Counted from the first letter of the stretch, positions 6,895 to 14,606 are shown. The stretch is 64,000 bases of DNA from an uncultured Mycoplasmatota bacterium (GCA_900547995.1 URIY01000002.1:2319-66318); one strand, 5' to 3'. Made by a program: numbers and translations. Notes: generated by a model not told the origin, from the sequence alone.

Positions 6895-9357
6895 TTGATG
6901 AAAAAGAGGAGAGGATTTACTTTAATAGAGTTACTTGCAGTAATTGTAATATTGGCAGTAATTGCACTTATTGCAGTACCAATAGTGTTAAATATTATAG
7001 AAAGAGCACGAAGAGGAAGTGCTCAAAGTAGTGCAAATGGATTGCGAAAAGCAGCACAATTTTATTATTCATCTAATTTAATAGAAAACGTTAACGAAGG
7101 TGATATAACCTTTACTTGTGATGGTAAAAAATGTATTAGTACTAATGGTTCAATGTTAGAAATTGACGGTACTGTGCCAACAAGTGGAAACGTTGAAATT
7201 AAAATGAATGGTGAAATGGTATTTTCGAATATTATTATAAATGGATATAGTTGCAATATACCTAAAACTGGTAATAGTAAGTGTTTTAAGAATGGTAAGA
7301 ATAATGTTTCTGATATTTCTATTGGGGAAGTTACTACAACAGTAAATAGTATTATAATACCGTATACTTTAGACAACGAATTATCTTTAAATGTATCTAC
7401 AAATAAAGAAGATTTAGATGGAAAAGTAGTTCCTATGTCATATAATAATTTGGAAACTAAAAAGGCAAATGTTGCATTATTAGAAGCAAATAGTGAAAAT
7501 GTAATTTGTGAGTATGGGACTGATGAACAGTATGGACAATATGGAATAATAGAAAATAATAGTTGCTATATAACAGGATTAGATGCAAATACAGTTTATT
7601 ATTATAAATTAACAGTTGTTAGACAAGATGGAGAAAAAATAGAAAGTAAAGGTAGTGTTGGAACACATAGTTATGTACCAGGAGAGGTTGTATATTTCAA
7701 TCCAATTAGTGGTGAACCTTGTTATAATTATAGTAACAGTAATAGTAATTGGAAATACATTGGGCAACCTGAAAAAGCAAGTCAAAATCAATGCCTAAAG
7801 TGGAATATTGTATCATATGATAATGAAAATCATAAAATAAATATGTTAATTGATCATAATGTTACATATAACATAAGTTGGGAAACAGCATCTGATCCAA
7901 ATTCTTTATCGGATATTAGAAGTTTGTGGAGTGGTGTAGATAATATTCGACAAATTACTGCAGATGAAATTGCCGAAATAACAGGTGCTTCTTCTGAAAA
8001 TACATTAAAATGGAATTCATCAAAAAAAGGAAAACTTTTAGAAGATGAAACATTAGATGTTAATGCTGATTTGGATACTGAAGTATCATGGTATTCATTA
8101 AATGGTAGTGGTAAAACTTATAATAAAAGTGAAAATGGATGGCAGGTAGTTAACAAATTAAATGGTGTAAGCAAGGTTGGTTGGCTATATGAAAACACAG
8201 AAGATTGCGTGTCATATGGTTGTATGTATGAAGATACTCATTCATCATTTGCATATTGGACTGAAACGCCAATTAATATTGTCAATAAATATACTAAAAT
8301 GTGGGTTATTACGAATCATGGTGTTCTAGCAACTGCTTATTCAACAGTAAATGGATTATTAGGAATAAGACCAGTTGTTACAATTGATGAAAAAAAACTA
8401 ACTATTAAGGGAAATCAAAATAATGTTGGCTTTATAAATAAAAAGCCTGATATTAAGGCATATGATGTATATATGAAAGATTCACAAATTATTGTAAATA
8501 TAGATAGTGACGTTAGTCTTCGCCAAATACTATGTGAATATGGGGAAAATGGTAAATATACAAATAGTGTGGAGGCAAGTTTAGGTGCCACGATTGGTTT
8601 AGAAGATGGTAAATCGTATAATTATTGTACTATGGAAAATTTATCTGATAATACGAAATATGATTATAAAATCACAGTGACCGATAAGTTTTATAATAGT
8701 AGTATAGTAACAGGTGATTTTATTTTTAAATCAGAAACGACTGATACACCGAAAGAGGACGAAACGAAAAATCTAGTTCAATTGGGTGGTTACAATTGGC
8801 ATATAATTGAAGAAACTGCAAATGATATTACACTTTTGATGGATGCAAATCAACTTGGTGATTATAATCAAATGAGTCATTGTTCTAGTTCTAATGATGA
8901 AAGTAATAATTGTACATATAATGGCAGTTATTATACTTATAGTTGGAGTGACTCTTTGATTAGAAAATATTTGAATGGTCAGTTTTTAAATGATCTAGAA
9001 AGTAAAATAGATAAGGAAATTATAACTATACCAATATGTGCTGATGCATCAAGGGAAGATGGCGAGGCAAGTTATGGTGGCTATTTAGTTAGTGATTTAA
9101 GAACTGGGCAAACTTGTTCAAGTATTGTTAATGATAAAGTAAGATTATTAAGTTGGAATGAAACAAGTTATGCAGAAATTGATACTGATGAGGAAATTTG
9201 GATGTGGACAATGGCTTCTTATCCAGATAAATTTGGTGGGATTAAAGCGTCAGAATATGTAAGATTTTCTCTTGGAGTTACCTCTAAAGGAGCATCTGGC
9301 TATAGAAAGAGTGAGAATAATTATTTAGTTCGACCTGTTATTACTATTGCTAAATAA
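6895..9357 (+). CDS. large modular protein (820 aa) with a prepilin-type N-terminal cleavage/methylation domain (type IV pilin/pseudopilin-like)
   Basis: The N-terminus MMKKRRG|FTLIELLAVIVILAVIALIAVP is a textbook class III signal peptide (basic leader, G-F cleavage site, Glu at +5, hydrophobic alpha1 helix). It is followed by about 780 aa of beta-rich extracellular sequence with internal repeats (ICEYGTDEQYGQYG...YYYKLTV and LCEYGENGKYT...YDYKITV, FN3/Ig-like) and two W-x-I/V-...-LL-D motifs. Confidence 0.75.
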   Translation: MMKKRRGFTLIELLAVIVILAVIALIAVPIVLNIIERARRGSAQSSANGLRKAAQFYYSSNLIENVNEGDITFTCDGKKCISTNGSMLEIDGTVPTSGNVEIKMNGEMVFSNIIINGYSCNIPKTGNSKCFKNGKNNVSDISIGEVTTTVNSIIIPYTLDNELSLNVSTNKEDLDGKVVPMSYNNLETKKANVALLEANSENVICEYGTDEQYGQYGIIENNSCYITGLDANTVYYYKLTVVRQDGEKIESKGSVGTHSYVPGEVVYFNPISGEPCYNYSNSNSNWKYIGQPEKASQNQCLKWNIVSYDNENHKINMLIDHNVTYNISWETASDPNSLSDIRSLWSGVDNIRQITADEIAEITGASSENTLKWNSSKKGKLLEDETLDVNADLDTEVSWYSLNGSGKTYNKSENGWQVVNKLNGVSKVGWLYENTEDCVSYGCMYEDTHSSFAYWTETPINIVNKYTKMWVITNHGVLATAYSTVNGLLGIRPVVTIDEKKLTIKGNQNNVGFINKKPDIKAYDVYMKDSQIIVNIDSDVSLRQILCEYGENGKYTNSVEASLGATIGLEDGKSYNYCTMENLSDNTKYDYKITVTDKFYNSSIVTGDFIFKSETTDTPKEDETKNLVQLGGYNWHIIEETANDITLLMDANQLGDYNQMSHCSSSNDESNNCTYNGSYYTYSWSDSLIRKYLNGQFLNDLESKIDKEIITIPICADASREDGEASYGGYLVSDLRTGQTCSSIVNDKVRLLSWNETSYAEIDTDEEIWMWTMASYPDKFGGIKASEYVRFSLGVTSKGASGYRKSENNYLVRPVITIAK

Positions 9358-9452
9358 AGTTTTGATATTTTATAAAATTAAAAAAATGATTAGAAGGAGT
9401 ATATACTTTTCTAATCATTTTTGCTATAATTATTATAGGGTAAAGTAGGGAG

Positions 9453-12748: not shown

Positions 12749-12775
12749 AAGAGACCAGTTGGTCTCTTTATTCGT
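12749..12775. terminator. bidirectional rho-independent terminator between convergent genes
   Basis: Perfect hairpin aaaaaGAGACCAgtTGGTCTCtttatt flanked by A- and T-runs. It sits between the stop of the + strand hydrolase and the stop of the - strand PASTA gene. Confidence 0.8.
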
Positions 12776-14606
12776 TTATAATAATAGTGTAAGTATTACA
12801 ATCTTTAATGGTTGATCCTGAGGTAATAGGTGAATCATCATGAATATATCCTGCAGGATTATTGCCTGCTTTTGTCGTATAATTAAATGTAATATTTGGA
12901 TATTGTGCTGATAATTTACTTTTCAATGTTGCAATAGTTGTATTTGCAGAACCACCAGTTACCCAGTTTGGTTGGATTACTAATGTATATGTATTAGAAC
13001 TATTACAAGTTGGTGTTACAGGATCTGGTTTTTTTTCTGGCTCTGGTCCATTACTAATAGTTAATGTTATACTAGTATTTTCAGCAACAACGGAATTTTT
13101 ACTCATTGATTGTGACATAATATAACCACTATCAACGCTACTACTATATCGATATGTAAATGAACATTTTAATTTAGAACTTGTACATAATGAACTAGCA
13201 CTGCTTTTTGTTTTTCCATAAAAGTTTGGTACAGTTGTAGATGGCCCTTTAGAGTATATTACTTTAATTGTCTCATTTAAATTAATATATTCACCAACAT
13301 TAGGTGTGACAGAAATAATTGTTCCAGTAGGGTTTTCATTAAATTCACTATCTTCTTCATAGTGCAAATTTAAGCCATCTGCCCAAGCTCTAAATGATGC
13401 CATACTATCAAATTTTTCCATTTTTAGTTTTCCTTTAGAAATAGTAAGTTCAATGATTGTTCCTTCTTCAACTTTACTATTAATAGGGTAGTTACTAGAA
13501 ACAATGGCTCCGGTTTCTATTTCATTATCATATGCTTCTTTAAATTTTAATTTTAATTTATTATCTGTGATCCATTTTGTGGCATCACTAACATTCATTG
13601 ATGTAAAATCAGGAATATTAATTTCTTTACCTTTAGAAATAATAATGGTTACAGTTTGTGTTTTCGGATCAATAGTTGTTCCTTCTTTTTCACTTTGACT
13701 TATACAATAATCTCTAGATATATTATCGGAAAATTCATAAGTTATTTCATATTTAATACCATTTCTTTTTAGCCATAATGTTGCTTCAAACAAAGATTTT
13801 CCTTTCAAATCAATCATTGAAACGCTAGCTAAATCTTCTTCTTTACCAAGGGATACTATAAGTTCAAGTGCATCATTTCTTTTAATTTCACCATTAATAT
13901 TTTGTGAAATGATAATATCTTTATCTACTGTATCACTTAATTCATAATTAATACTAACATTGTTCATAAAATTATCATTAATTATCTTTAAAGCTTCATC
14001 AATATTTAAACCAACTAAATTTTGTAAGATAATCGTTTTATCATAATTTGGCCCACTAGATACTGTTAAATTAATTTCTTTTACATCTTTAATTAATGTA
14101 TTCGCGTCAATATCTTGATTTATGATAAAATATTCTTTAACTAAATCACTGTATTCATAATTCTGATTAATCTTAATCTTTTTCTGTTCTGCCCAAATAA
14201 GAACATCATTTATATTTTTATTAATTAAATTACCAAGCACTTCTCTAGTAGGAAGTTTTATTATATTTAAATTAGTAAGTAAATTGAATATAATAAATAG
14301 TCCCATAAATATACCAGTTATACTAAGCATAATATTTTTAATTCTATGTTTTTGAATAATTGAACTAATTCCAAAAGTAATGGTTGTAAGAAAGATAAAT
14401 AAACTATTTATAATAACAAATAAATTATTTACCTCATTTTTAGAATTTAAAATATTATATATTAAATATGATGCACTAAGAAGCATTAATAGTGATACTA
14501 TAATACATAATATAATTAAAGATATCTTTTTTGTTTTCTTTTTTTCATCTTTTTGCTTAATTTTATCAAGACCTTCTATAACTTTTGTTTTCTCATCATC
14601 TTTCAT
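12768..14606 (-). CDS. membrane protein with multiple extracellular PASTA domains and no kinase or PBP domain
   Basis: 612 aa. The N-terminus is a cytoplasmic K/E-rich tail plus 3 TM helices. It is followed by 5-6 repeats matching the PASTA pattern (e.g. NINDVLIWAEQKKIKI...YSDLVKEYFIINQDIDANTLIKDVKEINLTVSSG; LKGKSLFEATLWLKRNGIKYEITYEFSD...ISQS; IPDFTSMNVSDATKWITDNKLKLKFKEAYDNEIETGAIVSSNYP). No Ser/Thr kinase or transpeptidase domain is attached. Confidence 0.7.
   Translation of the reverse strand: MKDDEKTKVIEGLDKIKQKDEKKKTKKISLIILCIIVSLLMLLSASYLIYNILNSKNEVNNLFVIINSLFIFLTTITFGISSIIQKHRIKNIMLSITGIFMGLFIIFNLLTNLNIIKLPTREVLGNLINKNINDVLIWAEQKKIKINQNYEYSDLVKEYFIINQDIDANTLIKDVKEINLTVSSGPNYDKTIILQNLVGLNIDEALKIINDNFMNNVSINYELSDTVDKDIIISQNINGEIKRNDALELIVSLGKEEDLASVSMIDLKGKSLFEATLWLKRNGIKYEITYEFSDNISRDYCISQSEKEGTTIDPKTQTVTIIISKGKEINIPDFTSMNVSDATKWITDNKLKLKFKEAYDNEIETGAIVSSNYPINSKVEEGTIIELTISKGKLKMEKFDSMASFRAWADGLNLHYEEDSEFNENPTGTIISVTPNVGEYINLNETIKVIYSKGPSTTVPNFYGKTKSSASSLCTSSKLKCSFTYRYSSSVDSGYIMSQSMSKNSVVAENTSITLTISNGPEPEKKPDPVTPTCNSSNTYTLVIQPNWVTGGSANTTIATLKSKLSAQYPNITFNYTTKAGNNPAGYIHDDSPITSGSTIKDCNTYTIIINE

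Follow-up and report, generated by a model that had tools for sequence, protein, structure and literature searches.

In most accounts, PASTA repeats sense a ligand and thereby activate a kinase, or they accompany a penicillin-binding protein (PBP), and to our knowledge the only well-documented link between PASTA repeats and an autolysin is that of StkP with LytB in streptococci. Pneumococcal LytB performs the final separation of daughter cells, the distal, fourth PASTA repeat of StkP (PASTA4) binds LytB with a dissociation constant of 22 μM and localizes it to the septum, and across streptococci the type of distal PASTA repeat and LytB are distributed together (PMC10434722). These experiments set a direct precedent for a partnership of PASTA repeats and a GH73 enzyme. 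We analyzed a 64,000-nucleotide stretch of DNA from an uncultured Mycoplasmatota bacterium (GCA_900547995.1, URIY01000002.1:2319-66318; ~25% G+C), here called the window, in which the gene for a PASTA-only membrane protein stands tail to tail with the gene for a LytB-like GH73 glucosaminidase (Table 1). An earlier note on the window had described three open reading frames (ORFs), for a pilin-like protein, the glucosaminidase, and the PASTA protein, as one cell-envelope island, and all three ORFs were found where it had placed them. We propose, with a probability of about 0.5, that the PASTA-only protein and the hydrolase form a two-gene module for positioning a wall hydrolase, specific to RF39-type Bacilli, in which the two proteins would make contact.

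The 612-residue product of the PASTA gene belongs to the PASTA domain family and belongs neither to the PASTA Ser/Thr kinases nor to the PASTA class B PBPs. A profile search, which the earlier note had set as the test of its repeats, matched Pfam family PF03793 over six stretches (E = 8.4e-58; 192.7 bits against a cut-off of 23.2), and in the repeat alignment the repeats are ~65-residue beta-alpha-beta-beta units. The three transmembrane (TM) helices described before were also found, and the five to six repeats became six canonical ones plus a seventh, divergent PASTA-like domain. By the positive-inside rule the N terminus is cytoplasmic and the repeats are extracellular, and only ~27 residues precede TM1 on the cytoplasmic side. 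Pfam and NCBIfam searches matched neither a kinase domain nor a transpeptidase or PBP dimerization domain in the protein, in line with the original description; the NCBIfam kinase model NF033483 (PknB_PASTA_kin) aligned at profile positions 332-563 only (183 bits against a cut-off of 450). No Hanks kinase, with an HRDxKxxN or DFG motif, was found in the window or in the locus neighborhoods, which reach ~10 kb per side and total less than one genome equivalent, and the gene upstream of the PASTA gene is divergent and unrelated.

The protein represents a family of at least 390 members of 570 to 730 residues in which PASTA is the sole Pfam domain. The family alignment shows a common plan of a variable, K/E-rich cytoplasmic tail, three TM helices, six PASTA repeats, a low-complexity linker, and a C-terminal domain of ~80 residues. 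Standalone PASTA proteins bear the database label "PASTA domain-containing protein," and we found no functional study of one, and no work on PASTA in RF39, in the searchable literature. The longer cytoplasmic tails of 27 of 134 family members carry a conserved [ST]R-x-x-[RK][RK] motif (SRSERK, SRAERK, or SRTERR; for example, P0114 residues 11-16, P0061 residues 29-34, and P0109 residues 9-14), which we take to resemble the GpsB-binding motifs in the cytoplasmic tails of PBPs; the tail of the window protein is short and has no such motif.

The C-terminal domain, the part of the protein farthest from the membrane, was modeled by AlphaFold2 (AF2) with a mean predicted local distance difference test score (pLDDT) of 88.8 overall and ~93 over the folded part, in a beta-alpha-beta-beta-beta topology. 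The best eight Foldseek matches in the PDB were all PASTA domains (from PknB, Stk1, PBP1, and PrkC), with a TM-score on the query (TMq) of ~0.5 and a root mean square deviation of ~3.4 Å. On this model we read the domain as a seventh, divergent, membrane-distal PASTA-like domain. An immunoglobulin (Ig) domain like that of PrkC was considered as its identity and dropped because the Foldseek matches favored the PASTA-like fold.

The convergent gene encodes a 1,097-residue protein with a Sec signal peptide that is likely cleaved at IKA|D (residues 29/30). The assignment to GH73 was upheld: by its PF01832 match the protein belongs to this family, and it is a predicted enzyme with an intact active-site motif. 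The predicted catalytic Glu432 lies within NESGWG (starting at residue 431; codon at 10746-10748), and this motif and the YASDAYWG motif at residue 508 align with the active-site region of LytB. The nearest solved relatives of the domain are structures of the catalytic module of pneumococcal LytB (7PJ3 and 4Q2W; E = 1.5e-16). Co-linear matches to the LytB SH3b (residues 96-144) and WW (residues 259-318) modules were weak and individually non-significant. The earlier note had also named SH3b-like modules and two Ig-like domains. An SH3_3 domain and two Bact_surface_Ig-like stretches (E = 7.7e-29) were recovered by Pfam, and LytB_SH3 at residues 96-144 fell below its cut-off (20.1 bits against 25.8). 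Pfam found no choline-binding repeats in the protein, which has SH3, Ig-like, and tandem beta-sandwich domains instead, so it falls outside the choline-binding LytB family, and no wall anchor is known in it besides the SH3b modules. Orthologs of 1,000 to 1,300 residues number at least 499.

The last 308 residues of the hydrolase (790-1097) form a duplication, as had been described, with 35% identity over 98 residues (E = 6e-17). The AF2 model of this region (pLDDT, 94.2; predicted TM-score, 0.88) consists of two all-beta sandwiches. That the region belongs to no recognizable family holds for the Pfam version we searched, which gave no match and does not contain PF28587; that accession is precomputed on the C-terminal region of some homologs (P0138, P0142, and P0253), so the statement may be outdated and a recent family may cover the region. 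Structure prediction had been suggested as a route to a wall-binding fold, and such a fold cannot be claimed for the tandem domain: Foldseek searches of the PDB and a viral library returned only generic Ig/FN3-type neighbors, the best of them the C-terminal region of RmlT (8BZ6; TMq, 0.35), a Listeria wall teichoic acid rhamnosyltransferase. The module is rare, occurring in 194 of 1.84e9 representatives and nearly always at the C terminus of proteins of 850 to 1,350 residues, and it is essentially specific to this hydrolase family. A phage origin or sharing with phages was rejected after searches of IMG/VR and the GenBank phages gave no match. One ortholog of 1,269 residues (L005:3026-6835) has ~694 residues past the Ig-like domains, compared with ~310 here, which suggests four C-terminal beta-sandwiches and not two.

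We scanned one genome per GTDB species for the PASTA-only protein and found 46 loci, all in uncultured metagenome-assembled genomes labeled Bacilli, Mollicutes, Tenericutes, or Mycoplasmatota. Named relatives include Clostridium sp. CAG:1193, Ca. Fimihabitans, and Ca. Pelethosoma, two circular genomes measure 1.20 and 1.26 Mb, and the labels fit the small-genome (about 1.2 to 1.4 Mb) Bacilli of the RF39, RFN20, and ML615J-28 groups. A survey of RF39 predicted that most species keep a peptidoglycan wall and that their ancestor lost most PBPs and lyt/cwl hydrolases (PMC10868615). A hydrolase ortholog, homologous over the N terminus, the GH73 domain, and the C terminus, lies near the PASTA gene in 35 of 50 related loci. 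Of the 15 others, six break off within 1 kb after the PASTA gene, so that the informative count is 35 of 44 loci. In all 35 the hydrolase gene is 3' of the PASTA gene and convergent with it, directly adjacent in 26 (gaps of 24 to 186 nt) and separated by one or two genes in 9. When all neighbor genes were clustered as a synteny control, the next most frequent families were prmC (17 of 51 loci) and prfA (15), and the flanks were highly variable. In the reverse direction, three of four divergent hydrolase orthologs on long contigs were convergent with a PASTA-only gene; the exception lacks the Ig-like domains and covers only 63% of the query. The co-occurrence in related genomes that the earlier note had made a test of its reading is thus present, and the pairing is conserved well beyond background synteny.

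These counts bear on the idea that the two proteins have no functional relation, the PASTA-only protein sensing peptidoglycan in general or serving as a scaffold, for instance of a PBP or the divisome, or being the leftover ectodomain of a lost PASTA kinase, and the adjacency being inherited synteny. PASTA domains of PBPs and kinases do have roles independent of hydrolases, the cytoplasmic motif of some family members would suit contact with a divisome adaptor, and nine informative loci have no adjacent hydrolase. Against this, no other neighbor is kept more than about half as often, the pair persists in many flanking contexts, it is convergent in every case, and, as described below, the tails of the two proteins are replaced together. 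We regard the absence of any relation as very improbable.

To compare the histories of the two proteins, we correlated domain-wise distance matrices in a mirror-tree analysis of 32 and then 38 PASTA/hydrolase pairs. PASTA1-6 and the hydrolase from its N terminus through the Ig-like domains correlated with a Mantel r of 0.90, and the distal PASTA-like domain and the hydrolase tandem domain with an r of 0.85, whereas correlations across these modules were 0.33 to 0.42 and those between core and tail of the same protein were 0.34 to 0.37. Discrete typing gave the same division, with an adjusted Rand index of 0.79 for core and core, 0.52 for tail and tail, and ~0.07 for a tail and its own core. 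In sliding windows the changeover fell at the PASTA6 end and linker (residues ~521-540) in the PASTA protein and at the end of the second Ig-like domain (residues ~781-820) in the hydrolase; r was 0.7 to 0.86 between the PASTA core and the hydrolase core, and along the hydrolase it stayed at 0.77 to 0.85 against the PASTA core up to residue ~790. These results show that the locus is a mosaic in which PASTA1-6 and the hydrolase from N terminus to Ig-like domains share one history and the distal domain and the tandem domain share another.

The same boundaries are visible between close relatives. The window and locus L055 have nucleotide identities of 0.80 to 0.89 over 9440-11480, 0.37 to 0.61 over ~11780-12920, and at least 0.85 from 13040 onward. 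At the protein level, the PASTA cores are 83 to 90% identical and the distal domains 26%, and the hydrolase cores are 79 to 92% identical and the C-terminal domains 36 to 38%. Three independent close pairs of loci (L016/L022, L026/L037, and L021/L013) have cores of ~85 to 90% DNA identity and a junction block of 35 to 60%, and the replaced block is one contiguous segment of ~1.3 kb in these pairs (~1.2 to 1.4 kb over all cases) comprising the distal domain, the intergenic region, and the hydrolase tandem domain. We compared 16 pairs of loci with a core identity of at least 80%: both tails were kept in 9 and both were exchanged in 7, and in no pair was a single tail swapped. The converse also occurs, with distant cores and a similar cassette, in L025 and L050 (cores, 31% identical; cassette, 55%). 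The two abutting terminal modules have therefore been replaced en bloc, at domain boundaries, in at least four independent cases. It is thus the non-canonical distal domain that the evidence links to the hydrolase, rather than the canonical repeats, and muropeptide sensing by PASTA domains, which the earlier note had brought in, is not supported as the way the two proteins are coupled.

Co-replacement of this kind has another possible source. The junction could be a hotspot for recombination or insertion at which diversifying selection, for example from phages or host immune pressure, acts on one exposed tail only and the other is carried along because it lies a few dozen bases away; the co-variation would then carry no information on any function common to both tails. 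The two modules are physically contiguous, and mobile or defense-type genes have been inserted at the junction in several genomes (YafQ/RelB, Bro-N, Schlafen/AlbA_2, and LPD3). We nevertheless consider pure hitch-hiking improbable because in all four events the replaced tract takes in each module entirely, with its two ends close to domain boundaries and never in the spacer, and because the adjacency is selectively retained. No single-tail swap was seen among the close-core comparisons, convergent adjacency that persists as other neighbors change would stay unexplained by linkage, and homologs of the C-terminal module were absent from the phage collections searched. These arguments are suggestive and not conclusive.

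We infer that the distal PASTA-like domain and the tandem beta-sandwich domain are partners, either by direct docking, which we prefer, or through a strain-variable wall polymer that both recognize. In the docking form of the model, the three-TM anchor and six PASTA repeats would make up a stalk outside the cell, probably located where new peptidoglycan is made, for example at the septum, and the distal domain would be the docking site for the C-terminal tandem domain of the hydrolase. The secreted enzyme would thus be tethered and positioned for daughter-cell separation, in analogy to StkP PASTA4 and LytB and without a kinase. Recombination anchored in the conserved flanks that encode PASTA6 and the Ig-like domains could then swap lock and key together in one event. 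That the cassette is such a type-specific lock and key, with both halves docking on each other and exchanged in one event, we put forward as tentative. If this is correct, the potentially lethal secreted autolysin of each lineage would be captured only by the stalk of its own cell. We further propose that the tail-to-tail gene order has been maintained because it keeps matched, fast-evolving partner modules contiguous.

In the other form of the partnership the tails do not touch: both would bind the same strain-variable wall glycopolymer, such as a teichoic acid, a capsule, or a secondary wall polysaccharide, and would change together as it changes. The pair would still be functionally linked, since both proteins would be targeted to the same wall. 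In pneumococcus, a non-catalytic module of LytB fastens the enzyme to the wall by way of wall teichoic acid (PMC10434722), and the best match of the tandem beta-sandwich, a weak one, is to the teichoic acid enzyme RmlT mentioned above. Glycan genes also flank the PASTA gene and vary among close relatives (the gene at 14727-15965 is missing from L055 and L056, and there is a GT2 gene alongside), and the window has a cluster with TagF-like, ABC-2, and CpsB genes at 43 to 53 kb. However, the folds of the tails gave generic Ig/FN3 matches only and show no carbohydrate-binding signature, and the PASTA-like fold is not known as a binder of glycopolymers. We judge a shared ligand without contact to be unlikely.

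Direct positioning of the hydrolase by the PASTA-only protein gains support because StkP PASTA4 and LytB set a precedent and because the terminal modules are replaced together; the conserved pairing agrees with the earlier note's suggestion of a dedicated autolysin-control or anchoring pair, and the function and the contact that we assign to it are what the model would add. Several points weigh on the other side. The organisms are uncultured, and the pair is known here from its sequences. Adjacency is not obligatory, given that the nine informative loci without an adjacent hydrolase (eight of them distinct) do have the PASTA gene. The individual Foldseek E-values behind the PASTA-like distal domain are weak (0.08 to 0.5), although the top matches agree, and co-replacement is also what plain physical linkage of adjacent variable regions would produce. 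The StkP PASTA domain binds the N-terminal choline-binding modules of LytB, whereas here it is the C-terminal tandem domain that co-varies, so the proposed geometry differs. Complementary net charge of the two tails was tried as a hint of docking and discarded, as there was no correlation (r = 0.11).

As far as the searchable literature shows, three features are new: the conserved gene-level pairing of a PASTA-only protein and a LytB-like hydrolase, the divergent seventh domain at the distal end, and the junction cassette that is replaced as a unit. They suggest that PASTA repeats can act as a scaffold where no kinase is attached and that the pairing is hard-wired into gene order in small-genome gut Bacilli that are predicted to have lost most classical autolysins. 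The cassette offers an explanation for the conservation of a gene pair that is convergent and not co-transcribed. If the docking model holds, it would describe kinase-independent, allele-matched tethering of an autolysin and give a standalone PASTA protein its first functional role. The co-swapped modules also amount to dozens of natural matched and mismatched pairs, which makes the interaction testable with recombinant domains even though the hosts are uncultured.

Table 1. Features of the PASTA/hydrolase locus, with positions counted from the first letter of the window; entries that begin with an L number lie in related loci
Feature	Position	Strand	Basis or detail
Prepilin-type, "modular pilin"-like surface protein, 820 aa	6895..9357	+	N_methyl and DUF6273
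Secreted LytB-like GH73 endo-beta-N-acetylglucosaminidase, 1,097 aa	9453..12746	+	ORF, Pfam, structure-profile matches
GH73 catalytic domain, aa 410-524	10680..11024	+	PF01832, 48 bits against cut-off of 30.2
SH3_3 (aa 549-627) and two Ig-like domains (aa ~639-783), end of hydrolase core	11097..11801	+	
Tandem C-terminal beta-sandwich domains, aa 790-940 and 941-1097	11820..12743	+	Self-comparison, AF2
Exchangeable 3'-3' junction cassette (hydrolase tandem domain, terminator, distal PASTA-like domain, linker)	11820..13043	.	Identity profiles
Shared bidirectional terminator hairpin, AAAGAGACCAGTTGGTCTCTTT	12748..12769	.	Perfect 9-bp stem; terminator score on both strands
PASTA-only membrane protein, 612 aa	12768..14606	-	ORF and PF03793; K-rich short cytoplasmic tail, 3 TM, 6 PASTA, linker, distal PASTA-like domain
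Distal divergent PASTA-like domain, aa 535-612	12771..13004	-	AF2 and Foldseek; membrane-far
Linker before distal domain, aa 522-534	13005..13043	-	
Six canonical PASTA repeats (aa 121-187, 188-256, 257-328, 329-394, 395-456, 457-521)	13044..14246	-	Pfam, repeat alignment
Three TM helices, aa ~28-115	14262..14525	-	Read from sequence; conserved in family alignment
Junction insertions	L036:11851-12392; L041:5628-6488; L009:2692-4020; L013:7077-8783; L051:9641-10264		
Recurring prepilin genes	L010:10055-10441; L011:11875-12243; L048:5571-5957; L012:12014-12379; L002:8208-9854; L006:16359-17108; L039:3-353		
GH25-like gene of family f14	L047:15428-16267; also L026, L029, L037, L040, L045, L049		

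The stop codons of the two genes are 21 nt apart, and the gap is filled by the hairpin that had been predicted as a shared bidirectional terminator and that scored as one on both strands. Orthologous junctions usually have two back-to-back hairpins; L018, L002, and the window have a single one. Some genomes carry extra genes at the junction, including a YafQ/RelB toxin-antitoxin pair, Bro-N, a Schlafen/AlbA_2 helix-turn-helix regulator, a 568-residue membrane protein without a Pfam match, and LPD3 (Table 1), and the junction seems to be an insertion hotspot.

Other genes recur around the pair in subsets of the loci. In one subclade the gene directly beyond the hydrolase encodes a GH25 muramidase-like protein that ends in a DivIC-like or TM segment (family f14; Table 1), which would add another wall hydrolase to the cluster, and L053 has a large RicinB and GH25 protein nearby. 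Family f20 (L003:8139-9863, L012, L017, and L043) comprises membrane proteins of 574 to 675 residues without a Pfam match, encoded divergently from the PASTA gene and upstream of priA; in this subclade the PASTA gene is mostly without an adjacent hydrolase.

The neighbor that the earlier note had called pilin-like is indeed of the prepilin type and carries a large grafted body. Its prepilin signal, MMKKRRG|FTLIELL, is followed by a hydrophobic alpha-1 helix (PF07963 N_methyl at residues 2-27, E = 1.7e-8; TIGR02532, E = 1.1e-7), Pfam places DUF6273 at residues 667-818, and the first 60 to 90 residues match the solved type IV pilins MshA, PilE1, and PilA; the remainder matches nothing solved. 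The window has no other prepilin ORF, and its annotated genes include no pilus assembly machinery (prepilin peptidase, ATPase, or platform protein). The idea of a three-gene island that includes this protein was abandoned: no homolog of its body was found in 50 loci, the gene is absent in the 75%-identical relative L057, where the hydrolase gene lies directly beside aspS and hisS, and in L055 an unrelated gene takes its place. Other prepilin-type (N_methyl) genes, encoding 116 to 734 residues, recur right beside the PASTA gene or the hydrolase gene in seven loci (Table 1). In three of these loci, which have no hydrolase (L010, L011, and L048), a small prepilin gene at the end of a row of small genes occupies the convergent 3' position.

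On the far side of the PASTA gene, a gene for an O-antigen-ligase-like membrane protein (PF13425; 14727-15965, + strand) lies in the stretch of lowest G+C in the window (19% over 14001-16000). In the close relatives L055 and L056, which do not have it, the GT2 gene immediately precedes the PASTA gene, and the PF13425 gene looks like a recent insertion beside the pair. The wall-polymer cluster (43299-52644, + strand) encodes an ADH-like dehydrogenase, three TagF-like CDP-glycerol glycerophosphotransferases (one of them fused to GT2, 864 residues), an ABC-2 exporter, a tyrosine-kinase-like P-loop ATPase, and a CpsB phosphatase. A 159-residue ORF without a Pfam or NCBIfam match (4900-5379, + strand) lies between hisS and an aspS-like gene and overlaps both at its ends; a 160-residue gene is called at the matching position in L057. 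Other genes of the window are hisS, the aspS-like gene, radC, mreCD, an L21 leader, recG, fusA, tuf, and ftsW/rodA, several of these names being taken from context.

Set beside known systems, the pilin-like neighbor alone recalls PilB and PilC of Streptococcus sanguinis, which are modular type IV pilins. It shares with them a class III signal and alpha-1 helix followed by large grafted domains; its body (FN3-like plus DUF6273) is unrelated, the window has no pilus machinery, and the gene is not conserved with the pair. FtsEX-type control, in which FtsX acts at the division site to recruit or control a secreted peptidoglycan hydrolase (PcsB, CwlO, or RipC), likewise joins a polytopic membrane protein with an extracellular domain to a secreted hydrolase partner. 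The window pair differs in having no FtsX or FtsE domains and no ATPase partner that we could see, and its extracellular part consists of PASTA repeats. Nearest to the PASTA core are the ectodomains of PrkC of Bacillus subtilis and Staphylococcus aureus (3PY9) and of Stk1 (3M9G), which are its top profile matches and closest PDB matches, and the NCBIfam Stk1-family model aligns with the window protein from the TM helix through the PASTA repeats. Those proteins have an N-terminal Hanks kinase, whereas the window protein has none, and PrkC ends in an Ig-like domain, whereas the terminal domain here is PASTA-like. The closest likeness of the pair as a whole is to StkP and LytB: in both, a membrane-anchored PASTA stack has an atypical distal repeat that is coupled, or here would be coupled, to a secreted, multi-modular GH73 enzyme. 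Compared with StkP, the window protein has no kinase, three TM helices in place of one, and six plus one repeats in place of four, and the hydrolase has no choline-binding repeats. The genes here are adjacent and convergent, and the partner modules are exchanged between species as a cassette.

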